Notes under the pieces: generated by a model | Told to the model about the DNA's origin: nothing | Database searches by the model: none | The model's input: the letters and a program-made list of their open reading frames with translations, nothing else | Position numbers and translations under genes: made by a program | Assembly: GCA_030649305.1 (NCBI GenBank) | Contig: JAUSFV010000005.1 | Coordinates: 1 to 54,153 of the forward strand | Length of the DNA: 54,153 nucleotides | Origin: a bacterium | GTDB lineage: Bacteria; Patescibacteriota; Minisyncoccia; Sungbacterales; GWA2-42-14 | Reading direction: 5' to 3' | Shown here: piece after piece, positions 13,202 through 47,590 of the stretch | How the letters are laid out: the number at the start of each line of letters is the position of its first letter | Position numbering within the stretch: the first letter of the stretch is position 1

Positions 13202-13245
13202 TGTGTATAAAAAATCTGGCTTTTTTACGCCAGATTTTTTATACT
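13202..13245. repeat. 44-bp hairpin, copy 1 (probable terminator plus -10-like TATACT)
   Basis: tgtgtataaaaaatctggcttttttacgccagattttttatact; identical to 17617-17660. Confidence 0.9.
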
Positions 13246-13325
13246 AAGGCGGTAGGTTTAATGTATCCTCGTTTCTTTATTCGCATATTTGCTCGTCAAA
13301 CATGCGTTGGGGGGGGGTAATATAT

Positions 13326-16300: not shown

Positions 16301-17597
16301 CTCCACCGATCAGCAAGTAAAAGTGTATCGTAAAATCGGAACCGGTTCTTCGTTTGTGAGTGATATGACAACCACGTTTGCGTTGCGCGATAACGGTGTT
16401 TGTAACCCTTCGGCGGGTACCTGCAGTGTCGCAGGAATATGGAGCGAATTTTCTTGCCCCACCGGCGTTTCAGGCGTTCAGCAGATGACCGAATGGGTGA
16501 CGATTGGCAGTGTAACGTCAAATCAAATCCAATGGTGGTTTGAGTGCAGTAGTACGGTTGCTGCTGAACAGCCTGTTACCATTTTGCAGTCTTGGCCTAC
16601 AGCGCCAAGCGCTCAGCCCGGCCAGTCATTCTCTCTCACCTACAATTGGAGCGGAGGCCCGACAAGCAGTTCAAAACAGGTTTTTGTGCATTTTGTAAAT
16701 AGCGCGGGTCAGATTGTATTTCAGGATGACCATACGCCACCCGTGCTTACGAACCAGTGGTCCGGTACGAGAAACTATACGCGTACTATTACCGTTCCCG
16801 CGTCAACGGCTGTGGGAACCTACCGTATTATGGCAGGGCTCTATGACCTTGCTACCGGAGCGCGTCTTACTCTTACTTCTACTTCCGGTTCGGGGGTAAT
16901 TGCTGATACGCAGGATTTGCTTCGGTATCAGATTGGGACATTGACGGTTTCGAGTTCTCTGGCCGTTACTTCTTCTCTCAACGCGTCAGGAGGCTTTTCT
17001 GCAAAGCAGGGCGACAAGAGTTGGTTTTATATGTACGCAAAACCTGTCGGTTCTACACAACCCACGCTTTTGACAAATATGGAAAAATTTGACGGAACTC
17101 AAAATCGTTGGCAGGGTGGTGATGAACAGTACCTTTTACTTTGGGGCAGTGGCGGGCATCCTGGAGTGAATGCCGATGCGGTGCGCCGTTGGGTCGCGTC
17201 CGTGGCGGGAAATGTTGTTTTGAAGGGTAAGGCTTTTGATGGGCATGTCGGATGTGGTACGGATGGCGTTGTAGTCTCTATTAGAAAAGCAAGCGGTAAT
17301 GGCTCAACTCTTCTGTGGGGGCCACATACGATTCAGAAAGATAGCACAGTCGGGGTTTCCTATGATAATGTGTCGGTATTTTTGAATGCGAATGAGGGGC
17401 TTGATTTTGTTATTAGCAGGGGAGTTGATGACGGTTGTGATTCGACCGTGTTTGATCCTACTATAATATTTACTCCGCAATCGTCGGGCGCTGGTTCTCT
17501 GGATTCCGAGAAGCAATTTGCGAGTATTCTTTCATCAATACAAGCACAGCTTAACGAAATTGCGAACGCAATTAGGATGTTAATGATTCGGCGATAA
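13326..17597 (+). CDS. Large modular surface protein (signal peptide, coiled coil, SH3-like, Ig-like and SPNGGE-type modules)
   Basis: MKKFILSI..AFA signal; LIAQLQAQIASLQAQI coil; two ILSPNGGE modules; S/T/G-rich beta composition; alternative ATG 13302. Confidence 0.9.
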   Translation: MKKFILSIMLGAFLISPVFAFAQTTNDALIAQLQAQIASLQAQINVLIAQQGGTPSSSVSFQNGDRVEVAASVLAVRNAPTTSGVIVGKVSVGMKGTIRCDASSSNFSCPTAASGYTWWYIDWDNSSLPNGWSAEGTSEAIFLTKIPSVTEEPNPASYVSISVPQTLQVGKSQQVFAKLVTTDGKSQDVTLETEWSSSDSKIVRIGGASCPAGTYCAQVLNGYYVYGDAPGTAVITATYQGMTQQTKVTVTQILVEVSPSITILSPNGGETWMVGFPQTIKWISSNFPSDRKIDVVRLRDSYGKEIYLLYGTINDGFEQIVVPSVPAGPYTLEIKTYSSSGELIFDASDAPFSIVSSGTWQEIGSLSVSLDSSNTAYYIAAAGTNDNNLAMLKFHAANEAINLKKVGLQLSMTSFNSPQDLVNEKVTLWDGATKVGEAIFTTQTPDFATSTLTADFIIPKDGDKLMTIRGSFAPIGVAQPGTPGAWVVVDYDGSNRLGTQGVGMSSGNTIYTSTAYDTASNGVHVFRSYPTVAKIDVTGALISGRRDLLKFKITAAPQGDVGIAKFAIRTQISSVTPGSLLDNINLYAYNDSSFSSVASGIQSDGALQLTYTSSGSTGGTYYIYPRNASGQNTAFLIPAGQTRYFVVRGDVTLAGETVSVVTQLLGDSVGNVGLRTVAEIDSTAYDNFIWSGNSTTTATVLHRDWSSGYLVPGLPEGGFSQTFTGGGGGQTPSIIVLSPNGGEAFVAGSQMTVRWSTQNFPNAPINLYLFTSNVTPPTESSYQWVANIAFQTANDGSETWTIPTNIISGSRYFVRILGYDQTGYTFPSGCLDGCRNDDSDASFSIVGTTSTLKSTIQGYKIDSAGNVFTNPGAIITVSGAVNQTYGTSANPYFAQQIPAGNYTVSSSVPSGYTVSYSLCTNCIDHPASSYVSGNSVSVNAPSGGYADLWWKYTLQISGQSVAISRTPQTSFSSPYRTGSATTLNATVSSSLFSTDQQVKVYRKIGTGSSFVSDMTTTFALRDNGVCNPSAGTCSVAGIWSEFSCPTGVSGVQQMTEWVTIGSVTSNQIQWWFECSSTVAAEQPVTILQSWPTAPSAQPGQSFSLTYNWSGGPTSSSKQVFVHFVNSAGQIVFQDDHTPPVLTNQWSGTRNYTRTITVPASTAVGTYRIMAGLYDLATGARLTLTSTSGSGVIADTQDLLRYQIGTLTVSSSLAVTSSLNASGGFSAKQGDKSWFYMYAKPVGSTQPTLLTNMEKFDGTQNRWQGGDEQYLLLWGSGGHPGVNADAVRRWVASVAGNVVLKGKAFDGHVGCGTDGVVVSIRKASGNGSTLLWGPHTIQKDSTVGVSYDNVSVFLNANEGLDFVISRGVDDGCDSTVFDPTIIFTPQSSGAGSLDSEKQFASILSSIQAQLNEIANAIRMLMIRR

Positions 17598-17616: not shown

Positions 17617-17660
17617 TGTGTATAAAAAATCTGGCTTTTTTACGCCAGATTTTTTATACT
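17617..17660. repeat. 44-bp hairpin, copy 2
   Basis: Exact direct repeat of 13202-13245, ending 8 nt before the pfkB-family ATG. Confidence 0.9.
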
Positions 17661-17668
17661 GAAACAGT

Positions 17669-18661
17669 ATGAAACAGAGCTACGACTTCATCGCAATAGG
17701 GGATATGGTAACGGATGCATTTATACGGCTGGAATCGCCAACAGCCCATGTTGATATTGACCACGAGGTCAGGGAAATTTGCCTGCGGTTTGGCGACAAG
17801 GTGCCGTATAAGGAGGTTATTGTGGTTCCTGCCGTGGGGAATAGCGCGAATGCCGCGGTCTCTGCCGCACGTCTTGGCTTGAAGAGCGCTCTGGTATCAA
17901 ATATTGGGGATGACTATTTCGGTAAAGAATGTCTTGCGGCGTTAAAAACTGAACATGTGGGGACGGAATATATTGCAACACACAAAAACCAAAAAACGAA
18001 TTATCACTACGTATTGTGGTTTGAATCGGAGCGGACGATTCTGGTAAAACACGAAGAATATAATTATACGCTACCCGACATTGACAGTCCGAAGTGGATT
18101 TATTTATCATCTCTTGGCGAGAATTCTTTGCCGTTTCATGGGTTGGTTGAGCGGTTTCTTACAAATCACCCCGAAACAAAATTTGCGTTTCAGCCGGGCA
18201 CGTATCAGATGAAATTTGGAAAAGAAAAACTTGCGTATTTTTATAAACGGGCAGACGTATTTTTTTGTAATAAAGAAGAGTCCCAGCGCATTTTGGAAAC
18301 AAAAGAAGACGATATTAAAAAGTTGCTTAGCATGACGCGGGAGCTTGGTCCGAAAATTGCCGTGATTACTGACGGCACAAATGGGGCGTATACGTATGAC
18401 GGCAACGAAATCCTTTTTATGCGGCCGTATCCCGACCCAAAGCCGCCGTATTCGCGAACAGGTGCGGGAGATGCTTTTTCTTCCACGTTTACGGTAGCGT
18501 TGGCACTCGGCAAGAGTGTCTCGGAAGCTTTGCGGTGGGGGCCGGTTAATTCAATGTCCGTGGTACAACAAGTCGGCGCTCGCGCGGGTCTTCTTGATCG
18601 AAAAACACTTGAAGGGTATTTGGCGTCTGCTCCTGCGGATTACGAGCCAATTATGATTTGA
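17669..18661 (+). CDS. PfkB-family carbohydrate kinase
   Basis: GNSANAAV..ARLGL, IGDDYFG, VITDG.NGA and RTGAGDAF motifs. Confidence 0.93.
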   Translation: MKQSYDFIAIGDMVTDAFIRLESPTAHVDIDHEVREICLRFGDKVPYKEVIVVPAVGNSANAAVSAARLGLKSALVSNIGDDYFGKECLAALKTEHVGTEYIATHKNQKTNYHYVLWFESERTILVKHEEYNYTLPDIDSPKWIYLSSLGENSLPFHGLVERFLTNHPETKFAFQPGTYQMKFGKEKLAYFYKRADVFFCNKEESQRILETKEDDIKKLLSMTRELGPKIAVITDGTNGAYTYDGNEILFMRPYPDPKPPYSRTGAGDAFSSTFTVALALGKSVSEALRWGPVNSMSVVQQVGARAGLLDRKTLEGYLASAPADYEPIMI

Positions 18662-18942: not shown

Positions 18943-19166
18943 GGGGACGTTTGCCGATGTTAAAAGCGCGTGATGTTGCGCGCGTTCTCACTGGACTTGG
19001 TTTTCGAGAAGTGCGCCAGAAAGGGGCGCATATTTTCTTTCAACATTCTGATGGCAGGACAACGCTTGTTTCTCGGCATGGCAGCGAAGATATCGGAAGA
19101 GGATTGTTGCGCCAAATTCTTCGTGAGATTAAAGTATCACCAGAAGATTTTTTTGATTATTTATGA
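18939..19166 (+). CDS. hicA: HicA-family toxin
   Basis: L..LGF..VRQKGAH..F.H.DGR..V..H..EDIGRGLLRQIL motif. Confidence 0.88.
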   Translation: MRGRLPMLKARDVARVLTGLGFREVRQKGAHIFFQHSDGRTTLVSRHGSEDIGRGLLRQILREIKVSPEDFFDYL

Positions 19167-20041
19167 TACTTCAAGAATTTTTACAAAAAGCATCAAAAGA
19201 ACAATGGGCAACCGGGCATTTTAATGTGTCTGAATTAGACCAGATGCGCGCCATTGTGGAAGCGTGCAAAGAAGTTGGTTCCCCCGCGATTATCGGAACC
19301 TCAGAGGGGGAGCGAAAGCACTTGGGTTTGGCGGAAGCGGTTGCCTTGCGGGATGTTTTACAAAAGAAATATGGCATTCCGGTATTTTTAAACGCGGACC
19401 ATACAAAAAGTGTTCAGGCCGCGAAAGAGGCAATTGACGCTGGGTACGATTCAATACACATTGACCTTTCTGCAGAGTCGTTTGAGAAAAATGTAGCTGG
19501 AACGAAAGAGATTGTAGAATACGCAAAAAAACATTCCAACATTCTGCAGAATGTTGGAATGTCGTTGGAGGGCGAATTAGGGTATTTGCGGGGAGAATCA
19601 AAGATACAAAAAGAAAAAATTGAGGTAAAATTGGAGGATTATACGAACCCGGAAGAAGCGGCAGAATTTGTAAAAAAAACCGGTGTTGACCGCTTGGCAA
19701 TCGCGGTAGGCAACATTCACGGCATTTCGTTGGACGAGCCCGCATTAGATATTGAGCGTATCAAGGTGATACGGGCCGCAATCCCGCAGGAAGTGGCGCT
19801 TGTCTTGCACGCGGGTTCGGGCATTCCGGATGCGCAAATCCGCGTGGCCATTTCAGCGGGTATCGCGAATATTCATATCAATACGGATATTCGCGTGGCA
19901 TTTGTGGAAGGATTGAAAAAGGGAATTGCCGAGCATCCCAATGAGGCCGCGATGTATAAATTGGACGCGGAGGCGATTGCGGAAATGAAGGAGGTATTGA
20001 AGGAGAAATTGAGATTATTTGGGTCAGTCAATAGATTATGA
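19163..20041 (+). CDS. fba: Class II fructose-bisphosphate aldolase
   Basis: GHFN, LNADH, EGELG, LAIAVGNIHG, LVLHAGSG and HINT motifs. Confidence 0.93.
   Translation: MILQEFLQKASKEQWATGHFNVSELDQMRAIVEACKEVGSPAIIGTSEGERKHLGLAEAVALRDVLQKKYGIPVFLNADHTKSVQAAKEAIDAGYDSIHIDLSAESFEKNVAGTKEIVEYAKKHSNILQNVGMSLEGELGYLRGESKIQKEKIEVKLEDYTNPEEAAEFVKKTGVDRLAIAVGNIHGISLDEPALDIERIKVIRAAIPQEVALVLHAGSGIPDAQIRVAISAGIANIHINTDIRVAFVEGLKKGIAEHPNEAAMYKLDAEAIAEMKEVLKEKLRLFGSVNRL
19531..19562. repeat. 32-bp perfect palindrome in frame in fba
   Basis: acattccaacattctg|cagaatgttggaatgt; encodes HSNILQNVGM. Confidence 0.95.
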
Positions 20042-32014: not shown

Positions 32015-32291
32015 ATTTTGATTCCACGTTCACCACTTTTTGTCGTATTCGTGTTCCGTCAAATTTTACCTTTCTTTTTTCGGAAAATCTTACGATTCCT
32101 TCTTGCATCGCATACAGGGTGTCATCACCGCCCTGTTTAACGTGTGTGCCGGCAAGAACGCTCGTTCCGCGCTGGCGCACCAAAATAGAACCCGGTTGCA
32201 CCCGCGCTCCTTCGTGGCGTTTGATGCCAAGATATTTGGGTTGTGAGTCGCGGCCGAGCTTTGTAGACCCGCCCGCTTTTGTATGTGCCAT
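32013..32291 (-). CDS. rpmA: 50S ribosomal protein L27
   Basis: MAHTKAGGSTKLGRDS..KYLG..G.ILVRQRG motif. Confidence 0.97.
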   Translation of the reverse strand: MAHTKAGGSTKLGRDSQPKYLGIKRHEGARVQPGSILVRQRGTSVLAGTHVKQGGDDTLYAMQEGIVRFSEKRKVKFDGTRIRQKVVNVESK

Positions 32292-32345
32292 AATTTCCGA
32301 AAATTTAGAGTTTCAGCGAATAAATTTTCGCTGAAATTATGAGCA
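32292..32345 (-). repeat. 54-bp leader element upstream of rpmA
   Basis: 53/54 identical to 34969-35022; internal palindrome ttcagcgaa...ttcgctgaa. Confidence 0.9.
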
Positions 32346-32510
32346 TCCCGCATTAAACCTAACGATAGACTACTATTACGAAAATGAAAGCCGAAGGCGA
32401 GTCCCGTGTGTGTTTCTTTGGTGTATTGTTGATTTTTCTTCGGGTTTTAGTGCGGGGTACCATTTCCCCTGTTGCTTTTTATAAAAATACGCTACAAATA
32501 TATGTAATCT

Positions 32511-32924
32511 ATGATATACGAATCTTATCAAAAAGTCAAAGAATACGCAAGGGCTTCTCAAAAGGACCTTTTTCTTGCCGGTCTTATCTTTCTTGTGAGT
32601 ATCGGAAGTTTTGGCTTGGGGCGATTATCGGCAATATGGCCGGAAAAAGAGCCAATTCGGATTAGCCAAACAGCAGGAATCAGCGGGCCAGCCGTCGGCC
32701 TCGGTGAAGTCGTGGGAACGGGGGATTTTATCAAACCAAATGATTCTGCGCCTTCGCCAATTTTATCGGGTAAATATGTTGCCTCCAAAAACGGCACGGC
32801 GTATCATTATCCATGGTGTTCGGGCGCCAAGCGCATTAAAGAAGAAAACAAGATATGGTTTCAGACCAAAGAAGAAGCAGAATCCCGTGGCTACAAACCC
32901 GCGGCTAATTGCGAAGGTTTATAA
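32511..32924 (+). CDS. Membrane-anchored protein with C-terminal Ada metal-binding-like domain
   Basis: TM helix; YVASKNGTAYHYPWC..AKRI..F...EA..GYKPAANC motif. Confidence 0.85.
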   Translation: MIYESYQKVKEYARASQKDLFLAGLIFLVSIGSFGLGRLSAIWPEKEPIRISQTAGISGPAVGLGEVVGTGDFIKPNDSAPSPILSGKYVASKNGTAYHYPWCSGAKRIKEENKIWFQTKEEAESRGYKPAANCEGL

Positions 32925-33536
32925 TTATTTTCTATTCGTGAGAGCGTTTGTAATCGTTGTGGGGTCGCTATATTCGAGTTCCGACCCCGTGGTAAGCCCC
33001 CGCCCAAAACGGGTTATTTTTATTTTGAGAGGCTCCAAGATTCGTTGGATATAGAGAGCTGTCGCGTCTCCTTCGGCGGTGGCGTTTGTCGCGAGAATAA
33101 TTTCCACGTTATTTTTATGAGTTTCTACAAGCGTTTTTGTCCGATTGAACAATTCTTTTAAATGCAGTTTTTCCGGCGAAGACGGTTCAAGTGGCGAGAG
33201 AGTACCGCCGAGAACATGGTACAGGCCATTGTACTGTTTTGTTTTTTCCACGTTTTCCATATCTATTTCTTTTTCTATTACCATAAGCATTTCCGTGTTG
33301 CGTTTTTTATTAGCGCAATAGTCGCAGAGAGTATTCGTATTTGGTTGTATGCTTCGGTAGCATTGTTTACAAACTGCAACCTCTTTTCCAAGTTCCGCGA
33401 TTGTTCGGGCGAGATTGCCGCGGTAGCCATCACTTTCTTTCAATAAAAAAAACGCGAAGCGCGTTGCCTGCTTCGGTCCGATACCGGGGAATTTCAGGAA
33501 GTATTCTATAAGTTTTTGAAGGGGAGCCGGATACAT
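32925..33536 (-). CDS. recR: Recombination mediator RecR
   Basis: FPGIGPKQA.R, C4 zinc finger, YHVLGG, IILATN..EG.ATA and G.ELEY.D motifs. Confidence 0.96.
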   Translation of the reverse strand: MYPAPLQKLIEYFLKFPGIGPKQATRFAFFLLKESDGYRGNLARTIAELGKEVAVCKQCYRSIQPNTNTLCDYCANKKRNTEMLMVIEKEIDMENVEKTKQYNGLYHVLGGTLSPLEPSSPEKLHLKELFNRTKTLVETHKNNVEIILATNATAEGDATALYIQRILEPLKIKITRFGRGLTTGSELEYSDPTTITNALTNRK

Positions 33537-33618
33537 ACTTCACAAATGCACACAAATAATTCACGAATTTCATGAATACGGATTCGTGCGATTTGTGGTC
33601 GATTCGTGTTGATTGGTA
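33537..33618 (-). repeat. CACGAAT-unit inverted-repeat element, copy B
   Basis: Reverse complement aligns with 30285-30356. Confidence 0.8.
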
Positions 33619-34968
33619 TTAGAAATGTTTAGCAAGCGATTTGAAGCTTATTTCGTCTTCTTTGAAATAGAGTTCTATTTTTCCGGTTTTGCCGTTGCGG
33701 TGTTTTTCCACCATAATTTCCGCGATACCCGGCCGGTCGCTATTTCGCTTTGCTTTGTCTTCGCGGTAAATAAACATGACAACATCCGCGTCCTGTTCAA
33801 TGGAGCCTGATTCGCGGAGGTCGGCAAGTCTTGGAATGCCGTCTGTCCGCATTTCAATCGCGCGTGAGAGCTGGGAGACCGCGAGTACCGGAACATTAAG
33901 CTCTTTGGCAAGGGCTTTCAGGGAGCGCGAAATTTCTGATACTTCCTGCACGCGTGATTCTATTTTTTCATTCGTTTTAATAAGCTGGAGATAATCAATC
34001 ACGATGAGTCCGAGTTCGTGCTGGGCGTGGAGGCGCCGCGCCATGGCGCGGATTTGCATGAGAGTCGGCATGGCGCTGTCGTCAATAAACATGGGAGCGT
34101 CCGCAAGAAGCTCCATGGCGTTTCGGATGCGTATGAAATCGTTTTCCTCGCCTTTGTCCGAAAGATTCCCCGTGCGAAGTTTCCATGAATCTACGCGGGC
34201 TTCCGCGGCAAGAATGCGGTCGAGTAACTGCTCTTTTGACATTTCCAAACTGAAAATCGCAACCGGTTTTTTTTCTTCTACGGCAACGTTTCGCGCGATA
34301 TCAAGAGCAAGCGCGGTTTTTCCTAAGCTTGGCCGTGCCGCAAGCACAATGAGGTCGGATTTTTGCAATCCGCCCAAAATATTATCAAGGTCGGGGAATC
34401 CGGTCGGAACCCCGCGAAGTTTCCCTTTATTTTTATGGATGTCATCAATGCGTTCCCACGCGCTCTCCAGCGCTTCTCCGATCTTAAGAAAATCATGTTT
34501 GAGGGACCGCTGGGCAATGCTGAATACTTTTTGCTCCGCTTCGTCCAGGACATTCTCCATGTTTTTTTCTTCGTCATAGCCGAGTGAAGAAATGTGATGG
34601 GACGCGTCAATGAGGTCGCGGAGAGTCCGTTTTTTTCTGACAATATCGGCGTAATGTCCGACATGGCTTGCGGTCGGGACAAAATTTACGACCTCCGCGA
34701 GATACCCGGTGCCGCCGACCGCCTCAAGTTCCTTTTTTTCTTTCAGACGTGCGGTAACGCTTAAAATATCAATGGGTTGCCGATTTTTGAAAAGGTCCAA
34801 TGCTGCTTCATAAATTTTTCCGTGCGCGTCTTTATAAAAATCACGGGGTTCCAAATTGTCGCATACCTTATCAATCGCGTTTTTGTCAATCATTAAAGAG
34901 CCTAAAACTGACATTTCGGCTTCAATGTTTTGCGGAGGGATTTTTATTGTGGATGTTTGTTTTGCCAT
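33619..34968 (-). CDS. dnaB: Replicative DNA helicase
   Basis: PPQNIEAE, AARPSLGKT, FSLEMS, IDYLQL, SQLSR and LRESGSIEQDADVV motifs. Confidence 0.97.
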   Translation of the reverse strand: MAKQTSTIKIPPQNIEAEMSVLGSLMIDKNAIDKVCDNLEPRDFYKDAHGKIYEAALDLFKNRQPIDILSVTARLKEKKELEAVGGTGYLAEVVNFVPTASHVGHYADIVRKKRTLRDLIDASHHISSLGYDEEKNMENVLDEAEQKVFSIAQRSLKHDFLKIGEALESAWERIDDIHKNKGKLRGVPTGFPDLDNILGGLQKSDLIVLAARPSLGKTALALDIARNVAVEEKKPVAIFSLEMSKEQLLDRILAAEARVDSWKLRTGNLSDKGEENDFIRIRNAMELLADAPMFIDDSAMPTLMQIRAMARRLHAQHELGLIVIDYLQLIKTNEKIESRVQEVSEISRSLKALAKELNVPVLAVSQLSRAIEMRTDGIPRLADLRESGSIEQDADVVMFIYREDKAKRNSDRPGIAEIMVEKHRNGKTGKIELYFKEDEISFKSLAKHF

Positions 34969-35022
34969 AATTTCCGAAAATTTAGAGCTTCAGCGAATAA
35001 ATTTTCGCTGAAATTATGAGCA
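34969..35022 (-). repeat. 54-bp leader element upstream of dnaB
   Basis: 53/54 identical to 32292-32345. Confidence 0.9.
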
Positions 35023-35181
35023 CCCCGTGAGATGAGCGGTTCGCACTCTATCTCATGGGGGAGATTTCGTTGTTTTATCATACCGATTTTAAAAAAGCCC
35101 CGCAATACGCGGAAGCTTGACAAAGATAATAAAAAGGTGATAAGGTGGGGATGGTTTTTTACATTTCGCAAGGGGGTTCTT

Positions 35182-39182: not shown

Positions 39183-39326
39183 GGCCCCATTTTGTAACTG
39201 TGGTTACGCTGTAGACAAAATCGGAGCTAGTAGTTAGGACATGTGGTTCTTTCACCCACCCAAATTTTTATGGCCTCATCGTCTAGTGGTCAGGACGTAT
39301 GGTTCTTTCACCCTCCCACCTTTTAT
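39183..39326 (+). pseudogene. Two degenerate tandem copies of the tRNA-Glu 5' half
   Basis: Unit B (39272-39307) is 29/36 identical to the tRNA 5' half; unit A is more decayed and interrupted by a 30-bp hairpin insert (39191-39220). Confidence 0.75.
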
Positions 39327-39398
39327 GCCCCTGTCGTCTAGTGGTTAGGACGCATGGTTCTCATCCATGCAACCGGAGTTCGATTCTCCGCAGGGGCG
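39327..39398 (+). tRNA. tRNA-Glu (CTC)
   Basis: Acceptor gcccctg/caggggc; anticodon arm catgg-ttCTCat-ccatg; T arm cggag-ttcgatt-ctccg; CCA not encoded. Confidence 0.95.
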
Positions 39399-39439
39399 TA
39401 GGAAAAGGTGGGCGGGCAAGTCTATAAAACCGGGGCACG

Positions 39440-39566: not shown

Positions 39567-40928
39567 ATGTCTCTCAAATCATTTCTTAAAAAATTATTTC
39601 CCGAATCGTGGTTTGGGTTCTATCACTGGTGCATGGCGTGGTGCGCCGCTTTTTATTTTGGATTCCCCTCACGGCGTATGACGGTCGTCGGGGTTACCGG
39701 CACCAAGGGCAAAACCTCAACCGCGGATTTTATCTGGTCTGTACTGACTGCGGGGGGATATAAAACGGGCTTGGTGAGCACGGCGCATTTCAGAATCGGA
39801 GAAAAAGAATTTTTAAATCCGTATCATATGACGATGCCGGGGCGTTTTAAGCTTCAGAGATTTTTGCGAACAATGCAGAAGGCCGGATGCACGCATTGCG
39901 TGATTGAAACAACGTCGGAAGGTATCAAGCAATTCCGGCACAAGGGGATTGCGTATGACGTTGCTGTCTTTACCAACCTATCACCTGAACATTTGCAGTC
40001 GCATGGAGGAAGTTTTGAGCAATACAAAAAAGAAAAAGGGAAATTATTCGCATTACTTGCATCATCTCCGCAAAAAACCATCTGCGGTGCCGCAACTCCG
40101 ATTCCAAAAACAACATTCCAACATTCTGCAGAATGTTGGAATGTTCCGAAAGCGATTATCGTAAATTACGACGACCAAGCGCGAGATTATTTTTTACATT
40201 TTCCCGCGGATGTTAAAAAAACATTCGGTTTGGGAGACGGCGCGAATATTCGTGCGGAACAGATTCGCGATACGGACGATGGCGTTCTGTTTAGTGTGGG
40301 CGGCAGAGAATACGCCTTGCATATTCTTGGACGTCTCAATGCGCAAAACGCGCTTCCTGCGCTGGCACTCGGTGAAATTTTTGGTATTTCGTACGAAGCT
40401 ATGCAAAAAGGGCTTGCGGGGCTTCATGTGATTCCGGGACGAATGGAAGAAATCAAAGAGGGGCAGAATTTTCGCGTGTTTGTGGATTACGCGCATGAGG
40501 GAAAAAGCATGACGGCGTTGTTGGAAGCCGCGCGGGGTATTGTTGCGAAAACCGGAGGCCGCGTTATTGTGCTTCTTGGCGCGGAGGGCGGAGGGCGCGA
40601 TACGGCAAAGCGCCCTACCATGGGTCGGCTTGCGGGTGAGCGCGCCGATTATGTGGTGGTTAGTAATGTTGACCCATATGAAGATGATCCGAAAGAAATT
40701 TGTGAGGATATCGCGCGCGCCGCCGAAACAGCCGGAAAACGACGAGGAGAGAATCTTTTTGTGATTGAAGACCGGCGTGAAGGAATTCGAAAGGTGCTAT
40801 CGCTTGCGCGCTCAGGAGATGCGGTGTTTATCACAGGTAAGGGCGCCGAACAATCAATGGTGATTAAGGGTAAAAACATTCCGTGGGATGATAGGGTTGT
40901 GGTGCGAGAGGAACTTGCTCGTTTTTAG
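39567..40928 (+). CDS. murE: UDP-N-acetylmuramyl-tripeptide synthetase (MurE-type Mur ligase)
   Basis: GVTGTKGKTST, IETTSEG, FTNLSPEHL..H, PGRME, VDYAHE, GGGRD..KR, EDP and GKGAE motifs. Confidence 0.9.
   Translation: MSLKSFLKKLFPESWFGFYHWCMAWCAAFYFGFPSRRMTVVGVTGTKGKTSTADFIWSVLTAGGYKTGLVSTAHFRIGEKEFLNPYHMTMPGRFKLQRFLRTMQKAGCTHCVIETTSEGIKQFRHKGIAYDVAVFTNLSPEHLQSHGGSFEQYKKEKGKLFALLASSPQKTICGAATPIPKTTFQHSAECWNVPKAIIVNYDDQARDYFLHFPADVKKTFGLGDGANIRAEQIRDTDDGVLFSVGGREYALHILGRLNAQNALPALALGEIFGISYEAMQKGLAGLHVIPGRMEEIKEGQNFRVFVDYAHEGKSMTALLEAARGIVAKTGGRVIVLLGAEGGGRDTAKRPTMGRLAGERADYVVVSNVDPYEDDPKEICEDIARAAETAGKRRGENLFVIEDRREGIRKVLSLARSGDAVFITGKGAEQSMVIKGKNIPWDDRVVVREELARF
40112..40145. repeat. 34-bp perfect palindrome in frame in murE
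   Basis: aacattccaacattctg|cagaatgttggaatgtt; encodes TFQHSAECWNV. Confidence 0.95.
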
Positions 40929-40977
40929 GCTAATTTTTGTTATTTTTCTATAGAGGCTTAGCCTTTATAGAAAATGC

Positions 40978-41006
40978 TTGCAATTTTGCTAAAAAAATTT
41001 TATAAT
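40978..41006 (+). promoter_or_regulatory. Sigma70-type promoter for raiA
   Basis: TTGCAA-17 bp-TATAAT ending 6 nt before the ATG. Confidence 0.55.
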
Positions 41007-41012
41007 ACAAAA

Positions 41013-41423
41013 ATGAAATACACTATTAAAACAATCCATCTTCCGGTGTCCATAACGCTCACAAAAGACGTGGAGCGAAAAATTGTATCACCTCTGAAAA
41101 AAATCCTTGGCTCAAATACGGAAGCGATATCGCTCATGGTTGAACTTCTGCGCGAGTCGCGCCACCACCGCAAGGGCTCTATTTGGACCGCGCGCCTAAA
41201 TCTTAGCATCGGCAAAAACATGATTCGCATAGAGCAGAGCGGGGAGGATATTCACGAAGCAGTTGATTTGTGCGCGGCTCAGGCGCGAGAAGACGTTAAA
41301 AAGTTTAAGGAGCGTTCGCAATCTCGTGCTATGCGCGGAGCGCGGAAAGCCGTGAAAGACATGAAATACAACAAATCGGCGCGGACATACCGCACAGGAA
41401 GAATTTTGAATGAGGGCAATTAG
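41013..41423 (+). CDS. raiA: Ribosome hibernation factor (HPF/RaiA family)
   Basis: HHRKG, EQSGEDIHEAVD motif; position upstream of secA. Confidence 0.8.
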   Translation: MKYTIKTIHLPVSITLTKDVERKIVSPLKKILGSNTEAISLMVELLRESRHHRKGSIWTARLNLSIGKNMIRIEQSGEDIHEAVDLCAAQAREDVKKFKERSQSRAMRGARKAVKDMKYNKSARTYRTGRILNEGN

Positions 41424-41439
41424 AGCCAGTCGCAAACCC

Positions 41440-41467
41440 TTGCCAAGATTTTTAAAATGTGTATAAT
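41440..41467 (+). promoter_or_regulatory. Sigma70-type promoter for speD
   Basis: TTGCCA-16 bp-TATAAT with TG extension. Confidence 0.55.
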
Positions 41468-41512
41468 ACTTCTTTAGTACCCTTTTGATGTCATCAAAAA
41501 CGGAGGTTTTCT

Positions 41513-41878
41513 ATGATGAAGAAAAAGAGTCTTCATATTTTAGCTGACTTTCGGCATTGTCGCGGTAAACAAGAGTATTTTACTTCAGCCCGTCTTGTAC
41601 GCTCAAAGATCCTTCAGGTTGTGCGGGAAGCAGGCTTTACCATTGTAGCAAGCCGCTTTCATCGCTTTGGCGACGGCGGCATTACGGGTATTATCATTGT
41701 TTCCGAATCCCATATCACTATTCATACGTGGCCCGAGAAACTTTTGGTGAATGTGGACGTTTTTTTCTGCAATTATTCCGCAGATAATTCAAAAAAGGGC
41801 AGAAACGTATTTCAATATTTGCGGGGTTTGTATAAACCCGCAAGAAAAGTTAAGCCTCTTGAAGTGTGGCGTGCGTAA
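41513..41878 (+). CDS. speD: S-adenosylmethionine decarboxylase proenzyme
   Basis: HRF..GGITG..IVSESHITIHTWPE (self-cleavage ES|H), VDVFFC. Confidence 0.92.
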   Translation: MMKKKSLHILADFRHCRGKQEYFTSARLVRSKILQVVREAGFTIVASRFHRFGDGGITGIIIVSESHITIHTWPEKLLVNVDVFFCNYSADNSKKGRNVFQYLRGLYKPARKVKPLEVWRA

Positions 41879-41910
41879 GAAAAATACCCCGATTGGGGTA
41901 TTTCATTTTT

Positions 41911-42867
41911 CTATCGCGACCGAAGAGCGCGTTCGTAAATTTTTTCCACTACCGGAGGGAGCGCGAAAAGCGCTTTGTGCATCTCCGGAGAATAAAACCG
42001 GAACGAACCCTCAAGGTAATCAAATTTTTGCAAGGCCCAAGGTGGAAGATGCGAGGCGTCAAACCAAGAAGGAGGATCCGTTGTCGCTATGCAGAAAGAG
42101 CGTTCCTCACGGAATGACGGCACGTATGTCTGGTAGGCCGCAGTGCGATGCGTTTTGAATACCGAATTTATAAGTTTCCAGATAAGAAGGCGTCCGGGGT
42201 TTTGCCATACTTCTGATATTTCCGCTCCTTGCGCGACCACTATGCCGCCGGGGGCAAGCCGCGCGCGAATGAGATTAAAGTAATTTTTTGAATAGAGCGG
42301 AAGGGATACTTCGTCAGTCGGATCAGTAATATCAGAAAATATCACGTCAAACCGTTCATCAGTTGATTTGAGAAACGCGAATGCGTCTCCCGCCGAGACA
42401 TGCGCTCGGGGGTCATGATGTGATTCCGCCCAAAGAAAGGTCATTCTTTCCTGGGTGACTTTGATCACTTCTTCATCAATATCCACGAGCGTTGCTTTTT
42501 CTACGGATGGGTGTTTGAGAACTTCACGGAGGGTTGCGCCATCTCCGCCGCCGCAGATAAGGATATTTTTTGGTTTCATATGGAGAATCATGGCGGGATG
42601 CACAAACGCTTCGTGGTAGCGCGCTTCATCTTTTTCGGCGCATTGGATGGTCCCGTCAATCGCGAGCGCCCGCCCAAAGCGTATTGTATTAAAAATTTGG
42701 ACGGTCTGATACTGGCTTTTAATCGTATAAACCTTTTCTATCGGTCCCTCAATTTCGTAAAGACATGGGTCGTATCCGACGGTATCAATAAAATAGAGCG
42801 TATCCGATTTTTCATCCTGCCAAACATAAGGTGTCGGGAGCGCTCGCGGGTCATCAAAAGGGAACAT
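41911..42867 (-). CDS. speE: Spermidine synthase / polyamine aminopropyltransferase
   Basis: SQYQ.V, LAIDGTIQ..E.DE..YHE..VHP, GGGDGATLREVLKH, VDIDEEVI and DITDP motifs. Confidence 0.92.
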   Translation of the reverse strand: MFPFDDPRALPTPYVWQDEKSDTLYFIDTVGYDPCLYEIEGPIEKVYTIKSQYQTVQIFNTIRFGRALAIDGTIQCAEKDEARYHEAFVHPAMILHMKPKNILICGGGDGATLREVLKHPSVEKATLVDIDEEVIKVTQERMTFLWAESHHDPRAHVSAGDAFAFLKSTDERFDVIFSDITDPTDEVSLPLYSKNYFNLIRARLAPGGIVVAQGAEISEVWQNPGRLLIWKLINSVFKTHRTAAYQTYVPSFREERSFCIATTDPPSWFDASHLPPWALQKFDYLEGSFRFYSPEMHKALFALPPVVEKIYERALRSR

Positions 42868-42935
42868 GTGCTTCTCCGGCTGGTCTTGTGAACGAACTTT
42901 CTTTTTCTTGCTGTTTATAGTATTATATTATAGTC

Positions 42936-42978
42936 ATTATGTCAATACTCTCTTCCGTTTGTGGCGATTCGAAAGCGC
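42936..42978 (+). pseudogene. Decayed duplicate of the secA 5' end
   Basis: 40/43 identical to 43798-43840; reads MSILSSVCGDSKA versus SecA MSILSSIFGDSNA. Confidence 0.85.
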
Positions 42979-43044
42979 ATGAGGATGGTTTAGAAAGCAG
43001 TTGCGGGGATTTTTGATAGATAAAAAGACCGATGTTTTTTCGGT

Positions 43045-43746
43045 CTATATCTTGTTTACGGTGATGATGCGGTCTAATTCCCCCGCATAATTTTTAAGAA
43101 TATCTTCCGCAAGTATATCGGTCATGAGTTCCCGTGTTTCTGCGAACACGAAAGCGGAAAATATCGGGAAAAGCAGACAATAGAGGGGAAGCATAACAAG
43201 CATTCCTGTAAGCACGAGGAGATTGAATGGGGTTGGCGCTGTAATGGCGCGAAGTACTGCGGAGGTAATGCCGGGCGCTACCACGGCAGCGAGAATTATT
43301 TGAATCAATACCGTGTTTTTTATGGCCAACTCAATCATGTGTACCATGGCGTTATGGGTTTTTGCGGGAACGGAGGTTATGATATGATGAGTTGCGTATG
43401 CGTGTCCAAGCTCATGCGCAACGGTGTGGACGAGTCTATTCTTTAATTTTTTTATGTCTTCGTAGTATTCTTTCGGATAGAAACCCGCAAAAATAAGAAC
43501 AGTATGTTTTTCGGGGATATATTCTCCCACTCTTGCGAAAATGCCGTTTGTATTAACACCAATGAGGGGGGAGACGATTTTCATAACTCTTTTTTGCATT
43601 TCTTTCTTTTTGAATGAAGGATCCGGAGTTTCCTGAAAAATAATCGCGGGGGGTTCTTTTTTTCCACACGCAATAGAATTCCAAAAATTTTTCCACCCCG
43701 CTTCGTTGATTTCTATTTCATAGCCATTAACTGATATTCGCGGCAT
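43045..43746 (-). CDS. Membrane zinc metalloprotease-like protein (HEXXH; M48-like)
   Basis: HTVAHELGH, two TM helices, downstream E..E..D motif; GAGGAG SD before ATG 43746. Confidence 0.65.
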   Translation of the reverse strand: MPRISVNGYEIEINEAGWKNFWNSIACGKKEPPAIIFQETPDPSFKKKEMQKRVMKIVSPLIGVNTNGIFARVGEYIPEKHTVLIFAGFYPKEYYEDIKKLKNRLVHTVAHELGHAYATHHIITSVPAKTHNAMVHMIELAIKNTVLIQIILAAVVAPGITSAVLRAITAPTPFNLLVLTGMLVMLPLYCLLFPIFSAFVFAETRELMTDILAEDILKNYAGELDRIITVNKI

Positions 43747-43800
43747 GTCGTCTCCTCGGGTTGGCAATGAGCTTCTTCTTGTATAGCATTTGATATTATT

Positions 43801-46479
43801 ATGTCAATACTCTCTTCCATTTTTGGCGATTCGAACGCGCGGGTAGCGAAGGCGTTTGAGCCGTTGGTTTTGCGCATTAACTCGTTTGCGGAGGAGTACG
43901 AGGCGCTTTCGGATGCCGAGCTTCGCGGAAAAACCGGTGAATTTAAAAAGCGTCTCACTAATGGCGAGACGCTTGACGATATTCTGCCCGAAGCATTCGC
44001 GGCAGTACGCGAAGCGGCACGGCGGACTTTGAAACTCCGCCATTTTGACGTGCAGCTCATCGGAGGTATTGTCTTGCATCAGGGAAAAATCGCCGAGATG
44101 AAAACAGGTGAGGGGAAAACGCTTGTTGCAACCCTGCCGTTATATTTGAATTCGCTTACGGGAAAAGGGTGCCACTTGGTGACCCCGAACGATTATTTGT
44201 CGCGCGTTGGCGGCGGATGGATGGGTCCCGTGTACACGGCGCTTGGTGTTTCGGTTGGCGTAATCGCGCACGAACTTTCCGGAATCTATGACCCATCGTT
44301 TCAGGACCCGCATTCGCATGGTGATACGCGATTGGAACATTGGCGCCCCGTGAGCAGGCGTGAAGCGTATGGGGCAGATATCACGTACGGTACCAACAAC
44401 GAATTCGGGTTTGATTATCTTCGCGGCAATCTCGCGTATTTTTTTAAAGATGTAACACAGCGAGAGCATCACTTTGCCATTGTGGATGAAGTTGACGCTA
44501 TTTTAATTGATGAAGCGCGTACTCCGTTGATTATTTCAGCTCCCGATACCGAGTCATCGGAATATTTCGGAACGTTCGCAAAAGTTGTTCCGCACTTAGA
44601 AGAAAATACGCATTACAATGTGGACGCGAAATTCAAAGCGGTCACGATTACAGAGGAGGGGATTGAAAAAGTTGAAAAATTGCTTGGCGTAAAAGATTTG
44701 TATGCCGAAAAAGGATTTCGCTATGTGCGCTATTTGGAGCAGGCCTTGCGGGCGCAAGCGCTTTTTCTGCTTGACCGCGATTATGTGGTCAAAAACGGCG
44801 AAGTAATTATCGTGGATGAGTTTACGGGGCGTCTTATGCCGGGCAGGCGATGGTCGGAAGGATTGCATCAGGCGATTGAAGCAAAAGAGGGGGTTCCTGT
44901 ACAGAAAGAATCGCGCACACTTGCCACGATTACGTTTCAGAATTATTTCCGCATGTATGAAAAATTGGCGGGGATGACGGGAACCGCCGAGACTAGTGCT
45001 GAGGAATTTTCAAGTGTATATCGCCTGGACGTGGTAACAATTCCGACGCATCGGCCCATGGTACGTCTTGATTCGGGAGACTTGATTTTTCGTACGGAGA
45101 AGGGAAAATTCATGGCTTTGGTTCGTGAGATCAAAGAGCGGCACGAAAAGGGACAACCCGTTCTTATCGGTACGGTTTCTATTGAAAAAAATGAGCGCTT
45201 ATCGGCGCTTCTTCAGCGCGAGGGCGTTTCGCACGAACTTTTAAATGCAAAAAATCATGAGCGTGAGGCATTGGTGATTGCGCAGGCGGGGCGCAAGGGT
45301 GTGGTGACTGTGGCAACAAACATGGCGGGACGCGGGGTTGATATTATTTTAGGCGGGACTCCCTTAGACCCCGCGGAGGCGGAAGAGGTGCGGGGGCTTG
45401 GGGGTCTGCACGTTATCGGTACTGAACGCCATGAGGCGCGCCGGATTGATAATCAGCTCCGCGGTCGCGCCGGCAGGCAGGGCGACCCGGGGTCATCGCA
45501 ATTTTTTGTATCGCTTGAGGACGACCTTATGAAAATTTTCGGGTCTGACAGGGTTAAGCGGATGATGGAATCATTCGGCATTCCCGAGGACCAATCTATT
45601 GAAAATAATATCGTTTCAAAAGCGCTTGAATCAGCACAAGCAAAAATTGAAGGGTTTCATTTTGACGCACGAAAACACGTATTGGAGTATGACAACGTAA
45701 TGAACAAACAGCGCGAGGCGGTCTATAGGATGCGGAAAGAAATACTTGTTGCATCGGGGATTCAGGACTCCGATTTACAAACACCGCGGGAGCGGATAAC
45801 GGAGATGATTCGGGAGGAAATTGCGCGGATGGTTGATGTTCATACCGCCGGGTATCGCTCCGATTGGAACACGGAAGAAATTTTTGAGGAGATGAAAGCA
45901 ATTGCGGGTGTTGCGAATGAGACGCACGCGCGCCTTGAAGCAATCCGTGAGGAGGGAGGAGACGAAGAAACAGCGCGAGAAGATATGAAAGAATATCTTT
46001 TGGCAACGTTGCGGGCGTCGTATGATATAAAAGTTACAGCAGTAGGGGAGGAGGGTATGAAAAATTTGGAGAAGGTAACGCTTTTACAGACGATTGATAT
46101 GCTCTGGATGGATCATTTGGATACGATGGCGCATTTACGGGATTCCGTGCGTCTTCGCGCCTATGGCCAGCGCGACCCGTTAGTGGAATATAAAAACGAA
46201 GGGGTGAAGTTGTTCCGCGAATTGCAGGTCGCAGTTCGCGCGCAAGTCGTGAATACGATATTTAAAGTAGGGCTTACGCAGGAGCAAACAAATAACCACC
46301 AACATCACCATCATGCCCCGAATTTGATTTTTAAGTCGTCAGAAAACCAGCCGTCAGTTTTTGGTAACAACAAGCAGGAAGCTGGGAGCAGGAAGCCGGA
46401 AGCTGCCAGTGGGCCTGGCCGTAACGACCCCTGTCCATGCGGGTCAGGGAAGAAATATAAAAAATGCCACGGTAAATAA
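43801..46479 (+). CDS. secA: Preprotein translocase subunit SecA
   Basis: EMKTGEGKT, VDEVDAILIDEARTPLIIS, ATNMAGRGVDI, QLRGRAGRQGDPG; SEC-C motif GRNDPCPCGSGKKYKKCHG. Confidence 0.98.
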   Translation: MSILSSIFGDSNARVAKAFEPLVLRINSFAEEYEALSDAELRGKTGEFKKRLTNGETLDDILPEAFAAVREAARRTLKLRHFDVQLIGGIVLHQGKIAEMKTGEGKTLVATLPLYLNSLTGKGCHLVTPNDYLSRVGGGWMGPVYTALGVSVGVIAHELSGIYDPSFQDPHSHGDTRLEHWRPVSRREAYGADITYGTNNEFGFDYLRGNLAYFFKDVTQREHHFAIVDEVDAILIDEARTPLIISAPDTESSEYFGTFAKVVPHLEENTHYNVDAKFKAVTITEEGIEKVEKLLGVKDLYAEKGFRYVRYLEQALRAQALFLLDRDYVVKNGEVIIVDEFTGRLMPGRRWSEGLHQAIEAKEGVPVQKESRTLATITFQNYFRMYEKLAGMTGTAETSAEEFSSVYRLDVVTIPTHRPMVRLDSGDLIFRTEKGKFMALVREIKERHEKGQPVLIGTVSIEKNERLSALLQREGVSHELLNAKNHEREALVIAQAGRKGVVTVATNMAGRGVDIILGGTPLDPAEAEEVRGLGGLHVIGTERHEARRIDNQLRGRAGRQGDPGSSQFFVSLEDDLMKIFGSDRVKRMMESFGIPEDQSIENNIVSKALESAQAKIEGFHFDARKHVLEYDNVMNKQREAVYRMRKEILVASGIQDSDLQTPRERITEMIREEIARMVDVHTAGYRSDWNTEEIFEEMKAIAGVANETHARLEAIREEGGDEETAREDMKEYLLATLRASYDIKVTAVGEEGMKNLEKVTLLQTIDMLWMDHLDTMAHLRDSVRLRAYGQRDPLVEYKNEGVKLFRELQVAVRAQVVNTIFKVGLTQEQTNNHQHHHHAPNLIFKSSENQPSVFGNNKQEAGSRKPEAASGPGRNDPCPCGSGKKYKKCHGK
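46372..46405 (+). repeat. 7-bp tandem repeat (RAGCNGG x5) in the SecA C-terminal linker
   Basis: aagcagg aagctgg gagcagg aagccgg aagctg. Confidence 0.7.
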
Positions 46480-46961: not shown

Positions 46962-47534
46962 ATGAAAATTATATTAGGGTCACAATCGCAATCGCGAAAA
47001 AAAATCCTTGAAGACATGGGGTATGAGGTTACCATGATGCCGTCACACATTGATGAGAAACAAATCCGGTTTGAGGACCCGAAGAAATTGACACTTGCCT
47101 TAGCGCACGCGAAAGCGGCGGCACTTCTTCCTCGTATTATGGAGCCTGCCATTTTGATAACTGCCGATCAGGTTGTGGTGTGGCGCGGCATCATTCGGGA
47201 AAAACCGGAAAACACGGAGGAGGCAAAATCATTTCTCCGGAGTTTCCACGAATCCCCCCAAGAAACCGTCGGGGGCGTTGTAGTTACCAACACAAAAACC
47301 CGCAAGCAGTTTGATGGAGTTGATGTCGCAAAAATTTGGTTTCGCCGGATTCCCGATGAGGTCATTGTGCGCTATATTGAAAGCGGAGATCCTTTTTTAC
47401 ACGCGGGCGGTTTTGACCACCAACACCCGATCATTAATGAATTTGTGGAGCGCATTGAGGGTGAAAGTGAAAGCATTATGGGCTTGCCCGTAGCACTTAC
47501 AAAACGGCTTATACAAGAAGCAACCGAAGTATAG
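46962..47534 (+). CDS. maf: Maf-family nucleotide pyrophosphatase
   Basis: IILGSQS..RK.IL, IDEK.IR, AKA, ITADQVV, EKP and IMGLP motifs. Confidence 0.93.
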   Translation: MKIILGSQSQSRKKILEDMGYEVTMMPSHIDEKQIRFEDPKKLTLALAHAKAAALLPRIMEPAILITADQVVVWRGIIREKPENTEEAKSFLRSFHESPQETVGGVVVTNTKTRKQFDGVDVAKIWFRRIPDEVIVRYIESGDPFLHAGGFDHQHPIINEFVERIEGESESIMGLPVALTKRLIQEATEV

Positions 47535-47544
47535 ATTCCCAATA

Positions 47545-47580
47545 CAACATTCTAACATTCTGCAGAATGTTCGAATGTTG
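47545..47580. repeat. 36-bp near-perfect palindrome, third copy of the fba/murE element (intergenic)
   Basis: caacattctaacattctg|cagaatgttcgaatgttg; one mismatch. Confidence 0.92.
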
Positions 47581-47590
47581 CGAAAAGTGT

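Follow-up and report, generated by a model that had tools for sequence, protein, structure and literature searches.

A duplicated secA start flanking a HEXXH gene in a groundwater Patescibacteriota bacterium: a recombination scar, probably formed without an integrase

Small integrase-less cassettes, among them the cis-mobilizable elements (CIMEs), accrete beside integrative and conjugative elements (ICEs), such as ICESt1 and ICESt3 at fda; they sit at the 3′ ends of genes, together with related integrase-bearing elements, and do so recurrently. At the 5′ end of dusA, islands and prophages are inserted by tyrosine integrases of the DAI family (Farrugia et al. 2015, PMC4482086). In recipient cells of E. 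coli conjugation, circularised fragments that integrate by a single crossover leave the homologous segment, there lacZ, in duplicate, whereas true homology-facilitated illegitimate recombination (HFIR) deletes rather than duplicates the recipient segment (PMC3240628). HFIR belongs to natural transformation in the works cited in PMC5361080 (de Vries & Wackernagel 2002; Prudhomme et al. 2002; Meier & Wackernagel 2003), and an HFIR-like displacement has been proposed there for the displaced orphan gene relics of Vibrio type VI secretion system clusters. Here, we study a 43-nt direct repeat of the secA start and the HEXXH gene that it brackets in a bacterium of the Sungbacterales (Patescibacteriota), on contig JAUSFV010000005.1 of assembly GCA_030649305.1. 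The whole contig of 54,153 nucleotides is called the window below, and it belongs to a genome bin of 54 contigs, 1.02 Mb, and 46.7% GC (G000). The repeat is a real scar of recombination at the secA 5′ end, and the event behind it was probably independent of an integrase.

The two copies of the repeat (coordinates in Table 1) agree at 40 of 43 positions (93%) and lie 862 nt apart, start to start; none of 100 dinucleotide-preserving shuffles gave such a match, and both the duplication and the HEXXH gene between the copies are as a sequence-only reading of the window had described them. A mismatch search found two copies of the 43-mer in the genome and no others, and the repeat is nonpalindromic coding sequence, which rules out membership in a repetitive extragenic palindromic (REP)-like family and sets it apart from the genome's other short repeats. 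From its ATG at 42939, copy 1 reads MSILSSVCGDSKAHEDGLESSCGDF, 25 codons, and then meets two stops. Its three differences from copy 2 are private to it, confined to its distal half, and all nonsynonymous (I7V, F8C, and N12K). At codons 7 and 8, contigs of two related populations, from run X7 and from a minor strain of run X2, carry the letters of copy 2; codon 12 reads AAT in X7, with a synonymous T that keeps Asn, and the X2 minor-strain contig stops short of that codon. Since the relatives show the letters of copy 2 at codons 7 and 8, copy 1 is the derived, decaying copy. At 42978|42979, where the repeat ends, the similarity breaks off sharply. On the other side, upstream of the shared ATT, the two regions, the old promoter region PA before copy 1 and the new promoter region PB before copy 2, are alike only weakly, in a gapped, AT-rich alignment of score 22, a value that is reached by 1.5–2.5% of the genome's other gene-upstream regions.

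The arrangement occurs in nature in two forms. Since the genome is a multi-contig metagenome bin, an assembly artefact or a chimeric bin had to be considered, but independent unitigs from runs X1 and X2, groundwater metagenomes of two different studies, span all the junctions, from the old promoter through copy 1, the insert, and copy 2 into secA, with 0 differences and even depth; this refutes an artefact, whose probability we regard as negligible. Low-depth reads of the HEXXH gene are present in X3, and among the runs examined, the insert-bearing form was seen only in these three. The empty site, with speE and the old promoter leading into secA, is found in at least four runs and five related populations, namely X7, X4, X9, and two minor strains of X2, so that the comparison proposed in the sequence-only reading could be made directly. 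A 513-nt contig from X7, 92–96% identical over speE 42158–42670, runs through the old promoter straight into secA; its joint takes 42935 to 43798, skipping exactly 862 bp, 21 nt fit both sides, and no recipient sequence is missing. In reads of X4 and X9, ...ATATTATAGTC (also ...(GT)ATTATATTATAGTC) is fused to the secA start, and a search of X4 for HEXXH reads found no real ones. In X2, a shared 77-nt secA-start unitig has a depth of 50.7, close to the sum of 37.5 for the filled strain and 8.62 and 3.61 for the two minor strains, and the latter carry PA-type flanks; both minor strains therefore enter secA directly, and filled and empty alleles coexist within one sample. The 862-bp unit is, then, a genuine presence/absence polymorphism bounded by the repeat.

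The sequence-only reading had also proposed a search for circular intermediates. A joint in X2 that appeared to lead back from one end of the unit to the other turned out to be an artefact of a single contig aligned to both copies, and no circle junction was found in the unitigs, although unitigs and contigs can neither show nor exclude rare circles. An excised circle, if there is any, would carry the junction ...GCATTTGATATT–43-mer–ATGAGGATGG.

The insert itself holds one HEXXH gene and none of the features of a mobile element. No inverted pair joins its ends, no transposase was found among the open reading frames (ORFs) scanned, no recombinase among the 10 ORFs that were scanned from 39.5 to 48.1 kb, and no further copy of the insert anywhere in the genome; together with the 43-nt length of the duplication, this rules out a transposon, an insertion sequence, or a miniature inverted-repeat transposable element. 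The genome does encode two tyrosine and two serine recombinases, and their PF00589 and PF00239 matches are all on other contigs (C35, C3, C21, and C9). The composition of the HEXXH gene is not an outlier either, its GC being 42.6% (9th percentile) and its third-position GC in the 18th percentile, so that a foreign origin by composition was rejected. The 47-nt spacer at the left end of the insert was tried as the 3′ remnant of a donor hpf gene and dismissed, as the alignment score was no better than those of random genome windows.

Table 1. Features of the speE–secA region, with positions numbered from the first letter of the window
Feature	Position	Strand	Description
speE (spermidine synthase)	41911–42867	−	Pfam Spermine_synth, E = 7e-39; divergent secA neighbour in empty-site relatives
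Old speE|secA divergent promoter region (PA)	42868–42935		Last 11–30 nt fused to the secA start in relatives
Copy 1, relic secA start	42936–42978	+	ATT, codons 1–13, and 1 nt; 25-codon dead ORF
Spacer, left end of insert	42979–43025		47 nt; no significant match to hpf 3′ ends or elsewhere in the genome
Bidirectional intrinsic terminator-like hairpin	43026–43046		7-bp stem, T-run on both strands; overlaps the HEXXH stop codon
HEXXH gene	43045–43746	−	233 aa, HELGH; GAGGAG 6 nt before ATG 43746
New HEXXH|secA promoter region (PB)	43747–43797		51 nt, AT-rich; plus-strand TTGGCA-17-TAGCAT at 43761–43789
Copy 2, working secA start	43798–43840	+	ATG 43801 of the 892-aa SecA
secA	43801–46479	+	Pfam SecA_DEAD, SecA_PP_bind, P-loop_SecA, SecA_SW, SEC-C

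Both copies are associated with promoter-like motifs. On the minus strand of PA, the perfect TATAAT that the sequence-only reading had placed near 42927–42932 does run from 42932 to 42927, and a TACTAT follows at 42922–42917. The latter belongs to a promoter-like TTGACA-17-TACTAT site extending from 42945 to 42917, the −35 box of which, TGTCAA on the plus strand of copy 1, falls within secA codons 1–3 and faces speE. In copy 2, a TTGACA hexamer 16 nt from a TATACA could likewise face the HEXXH gene. PB runs up to the secA ATG with no Shine–Dalgarno sequence. The terminator-like hairpin closes the HEXXH gene and would also halt transcription that starts at the old secA promoter. RNA runs were searched for the stretch with the promoter regions, and none of those searched contains it.

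The HEXXH gene is found beside secA elsewhere, and this bears on how it came to be here. In the window genome, hpf and speD are followed by an inverted speE, standing back to back with the relic start, and then by the inverted HEXXH gene, standing back to back with secA. An inverted HEXXH gene between hpf and a divergent secA is seen in three other lineages, represented by L017/L018 (secA 72% identical), L020–22 (GCA_030697755.1; secA 63% identical), and the contig of P0007, and no stub of a secA start lies beside the gene in L017, L018, L020, or L021. The homologue P0004 (locus L019, 582–640) faces a DUF1861 gene rather than secA, and this gene begins with ATGTCAAT (M-S-I), its first 8 nt being those of the HEXXH-facing secA genes; the shared start could be a carried-over secA start or a promoter box. 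A rule that ATGTCAAT heads secA only where the upstream gene is divergent fails, as G001 has ATGTCAAT behind a codirectional speD. Among the 61 sampled relatives, the HEXXH gene was found in two and was absent from 59, the nearest genera (G001, G003, and G004) being among those that do not have it.

In these relatives, the hpf–secA interval (window 40974–43800; L011–L013 and L016) is a hotspot of changing gene content across the family, holding nothing, orf166, speD only, speD–speE–mcmAB, or speD–speE–HEXXH. In G004, hpf leads to secA; in G001, speD stands directly before secA; in G003, the order is hpf, speD, a speE fusion, mcmA, mcmB, and secA, all in one direction; and in G002, an inverted HEXXH gene stands back to back with hpf, which is followed by orf166 and secA. 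The speD of the window genome is 57% identical to that of G003, and its speE, which is inverted, only 31%. G002 has a possible short stub of its own, the only one in the secA loci of ten other relatives: a copy of its secA start matching at 17 of 18 nt (TATGTCTTTTTTATGAAT; L011, contig G002:C16, minus strand, ~2842 vs. 2734), 109 nt upstream of that start and directly after a TATAAT box, with a score above those of all 200 shuffles. It may be a second, older stub, and the secA start may then have been hit twice within the family.

The protein encoded between the repeats has its HELGH at residues 111–115 and is predicted to be anchored in the membrane, with two or three C-terminal hydrophobic helices. 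A HMMER search against 1.84 billion protein cluster representatives recovered six clusters in all, at 21–29% identity, and T108, H111, E112, H115, H131, N132, R205, and E206 are invariant in the alignment of the family. The protein has no Pfam match at the gathering threshold; family members have subthreshold matches to the zincin families M48 (best E = 4e-4, in one member), Zincin_1, and M54. Its AlphaFold model (AF2; mean predicted local distance difference test score, pLDDT, 79) has no significant Foldseek neighbour in the PDB, its sequence has no match among PDB sequences, and no homologue was found on phages or plasmids. Because both the Pfam match and the fold neighbour are missing, "protease" is an assignment at the level of the motif, and we call the product a predicted zincin-like protein. 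The search has thus uncovered a very small family of HExxH membrane proteins, and in four of its six lineages, the gene is divergent from secA, a hint of a secretion-linked protease in bacteria of the candidate phyla radiation (CPR). We regard the secA-linked family as a modest side discovery.

Our preferred explanation, to which we assign a probability of roughly 0.45 and thus somewhat less than even odds, is the gain of a single gene by Campbell-type integration, that is, one crossover between the secA start and a chromosomal fragment of a relative. The ancestor of the lineage would have had the order hpf, speD, inverted speE, and secA, as its sister populations still do, and the fragment would have come from a related bacterium with the HEXXH gene as the divergent neighbour of secA, carrying the terminator and the HEXXH gene together with the promoter between HEXXH and secA and the initial ~14 secA codons. 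Once circularised, the fragment could have entered by one homologous crossover inside the identical stretch around the secA ATG, (T)ATTATGTCAATACTCTCTTCC, of 21–24 nt, and the homology patch would thereby have been duplicated. The upstream copy would have kept the old promoter and, cut off after codon 13, become a dead stub, the minus-strand −35 and −10 boxes of which could still serve speE; the downstream copy would have combined the incoming promoter with the intact resident secA. The bidirectional terminator of the insert may shield the HEXXH gene from the old secA promoter, and the abrupt end of similarity would mark the joint at which the circle was closed.

Several observations are consistent with this course of events. 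The topology is as it should be, with the upstream regions loosely alike, the coding 43 nt 93% identical, and copy 2 matching the relatives, and the duplication is the homology patch, with one intact and one truncated copy of secA. RecA, ComEC, and DprA are encoded in the genome. With the HEXXH gene absent from the nearest genera and found in two of 61 relatives, one gain is more parsimonious than several losses, and under single-crossover integration, the gene would have landed in the equivalent place because homology with the secA start guided the event. The claim of the sequence-only reading that the incoming DNA restored secA agrees with what is seen, as the downstream copy and a different upstream region, presumably acting as the promoter, now head the gene.

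Other observations weigh against a single-crossover gain. Although HEXXH|secA adjacency exists in three other lineages, the closest HEXXH homologue is 29% identical and there is no close donor: an 18-mer scan of metagenome contigs gave chance matches only, two scans of GTDB genome contigs gave no match, and a word-based protein search returned the HEXXH query alone. The perfect homology of 21–24 nt is very short, and such lengths are near the lower limit for RecA-type exchange. The HEXXH gene is, as noted, not foreign-looking. The copies should be hybrids, the left one joining the resident upstream region to donor codons in its distal part and the right one an incoming upstream region to resident distal codons; PB is indeed unlike PA, copy 2 is like the relatives, and only the distal half of copy 1 differs, but decay of the stub explains the three changes equally well. 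All three are nonsynonymous, two of them at conserved N-terminal residues of SecA, and they fit decay after the insertion better than working donor alleles, giving the hybrid-copy prediction no specific support. Finally, identical empty sites would result if the ancestor was filled and the unit was later deleted by way of its repeats, and the polarity of the change is not proven.

That reverse order of events, in which HEXXH|secA was inherited vertically and sister populations lost the HEXXH gene by recombination between the 43-nt repeats, is in our judgement unlikely, though several points favour it. The HEXXH|secA synteny is old and widespread, the composition of the gene is native-like, and a repeat deletion gives the exact empty junction, with the letters of copy 2 provided that the exchange took place within the initial 21 nt. 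The 7% divergence of copy 1 is comparable to that between the window genome and X7 (4–9%), and the event is therefore not very recent. The gene must, however, have been lost in G001, G003, and G004 as well as in five sister populations, and the duplication calls for a separate step that vertical inheritance leaves unexplained. It might have been a local copy of the promoter and gene start, giving speE and the HEXXH gene a divergent promoter each, or it might have arrived with the speD–speE block; a local duplication predicts promoter parts as alike as the coding parts, and this is not so.

The flanking direct repeats, the exact empty site, and the restoration of the target's 5′ end by the insert would equally suit site-specific integration, with a trans-acting recombinase of the tyrosine or serine type that used the secA start as attB for a 0.8-kb, integrase-less, CIME-like cassette carrying attP and a replacement promoter. 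The four recombinases encoded on other contigs could provide the activity, and islands that rebuild dusA at its 5′ end are a documented precedent (PMC4482086). This is close to the attachment site proposed in the sequence-only reading, and the finer anatomy does not bear it out: the candidate recombinase sought is missing from the insert and its scanned neighbourhood, the ends are not inverted repeats, the insert is single copy with no phage or plasmid relatives, the genome contains no other site of this kind, and the lack of a circle junction in the contigs, weak evidence in itself, points the same way. The cargo also belongs to the chromosome of other lineages, as a conserved neighbour of secA with no stub beside it. 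It is the combination of the missing mobile-element features and the HEXXH|secA synteny elsewhere that makes us favour a single crossover over an integrase attachment site, which we think quite doubtful. Capture by end joining or a replication-based process, where a staggered break or template switching produces the 43-nt target duplication with no homology search, would account for the abrupt end of similarity at both edges and for the plain, element-free content of the insert. It leaves unexplained why the HEXXH gene has the position and orientation that it has in unrelated lineages, and 43 nt far exceeds the target duplications of known staggered-cut insertions; we consider it very unlikely. 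HFIR in the strict sense is ruled out, as recipient sequence is duplicated and, compared with the empty site, none is missing.

One further pattern at the secA start concerns the relative in X4, which differs from the window genome at 1 position in the initial 140 nt of secA (99% identical) and is 91–93% identical in two later pieces of ~150 nt within 43798–45141 (11/151 and 13/141 differences). Two readings are possible: recombination over a short tract at the secA 5′ end, or pieces that stem from different organisms.

The sequence-only reading further suspected a recurring insertion mode that duplicates gene starts, with the tRNA 5′ halves and a 44-bp duplication in the window as parallels. 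We scanned the genome for gene starts whose 43-mer recurs within 5 kb with 36 or more of 43 positions matching; among the 9 matches (1 in the internal control), secA is the sole bona fide case, so that the genome shows no such insertion mode. The others are REP-like hairpins or heptamer arrays overlapping miscalled starts. A BLAST comparison of the genome with itself gave 54 direct and 10 inverted repeats of 28–400 nt at a spacing of 300–6000 nt, and this excess of direct repeats, too, was rejected as a sign of an insertion mode, as it comes from palindromic or array-type intergenic elements and from internal repeats of giant ORFs. The best candidate for a second stub was a 93-nt repeat on contig C3, where it surrounds a CheY-like gene that precedes pilT; it proved to be a leader element in four copies (8191–8229, 11005–11096, 11463–11555, and 14023–14067; ~40–93 nt; GCGTTTATCATGGCGTATCATYTGGCGTTT...GCTTCTACG). 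The leader contains a AAACGCCA/TGGCGTTT inverted repeat and immediately precedes successive genes of a type IV pilus cluster, for a transmembrane protein, a CheY-like receiver, a PilT-like ATPase, and a pilin.

Other repeats were recorded in the course of these scans. The 44-bp duplication is part of a hairpin-bearing intergenic element of 53 nt (13202–13254 and 17617–17669; AAAAAATCTGGC...GCCAGATTTTTT), the first 44 nt of which are identical and which brackets a 1431-aa ORF at 13302–17597; its appearance is that of a bidirectional terminator in duplicate rather than of a gene-start copy. A 65-nt repeat (32286–32350 and 34963–35027), 97% identical and with an internal hairpin TTCAGCGAA...TTCGCTGAA, brackets 2.6 kb (32351–34962) with a plus-strand ORF at 32511–32924 and minus-strand ORFs at 32925–33536 and 33619–34968, and the end of its second copy, ...CACCCCGTGAGATGAGCG, matches a hairpin family of contig C30. 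A perfect palindrome of 32–36 nt centred on CTGCAG (AACATTCCAACATTCTGCAGAATGTTGGAATGTT) occurs at 19518–19569, 40100–40151, and 47534–47585 and on contig C17 at 5643 and 5962, its sites lying inside ORF 19163–20041, inside a Mur-ligase ORF, and between genes. Directly upstream of the intact tRNA-Glu(CTC) at 39326–39399, the 5′ part of tRNA-Glu occurs in two decayed, partial copies, spaced by 55–56 nt within the 39227–39399 region, each passing the ...GGTTCTTTCACCC anticodon-loop region and then reading TTTTATG. On contig C46 (4960–5014 and 5436–5490), a 159-aa ORF has its initial ~18 codons repeated (91%) just past its stop, again with an ATG before them, and this may be a decayed tandem paralogue.

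A more general idea may be put forward, although we find it rather improbable: in small-genome uncultivated bacteria, the promoter and first codons of an essential gene with no Shine–Dalgarno sequence could form a portable patch of homology. Genes with such a module at their flank may then be captured upstream of the essential gene with no integrase, each event leaving a gene-start stub, and the secA stub, the 17/18-nt copy in G002, and the DUF1861 gene of L019 with its ATGTCAAT start would be possible instances. Under the same idea, the HEXXH membrane zincin may be a dedicated partner of SecA, with its −35 box inside the first codons of secA.

Measured against the described systems, the insert resembles CIMEs in being a small integrase-less unit that lies between att-like direct repeats at one end of a conserved gene and differs from them in occupying a 5′ end, with no related integrase-bearing element and no recurrence seen. 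With the dusA islands, it shares the target, the first codons of a housekeeping gene, as well as the replacement 5′ end brought in and the displaced stub left behind; unlike them, it has no integrase, measures 0.8 kb with one gene instead of many kilobases, carries a conserved neighbour of secA, and gives no evidence of repeated use of the site. The caution for other loci is that not every flanking repeat is an attachment site. As in HFIR, a conserved neighbour would anchor the foreign DNA, one junction (42978|42979) is free of homology, a relic of the resident sequence is left, and the genome encodes ComEC, DprA, and RecA, but HFIR typically deletes recipient DNA, and here, 43 nt were duplicated and nothing was lost. 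The closest parallel is the Campbell integration at lacZ of E. coli (PMC3240628), with a patch of 109–950 bp against 43 nt (21–24 perfect) at secA; the secA event is a natural one in an uncultivated, CPR-like bacterium, where the donor and circle are inferred and not seen. In both, a direct duplication flanks the insert, one target copy is intact and the other truncated, and no dedicated recombinase is needed. The scar at secA thus adds an example to a kind of event already known and is not a new system, and it offers a case, resolved to the base pair, of how a streamlined groundwater bacterium of ~1 Mb would gain a gene immediately upstream of an essential one without breaking it.

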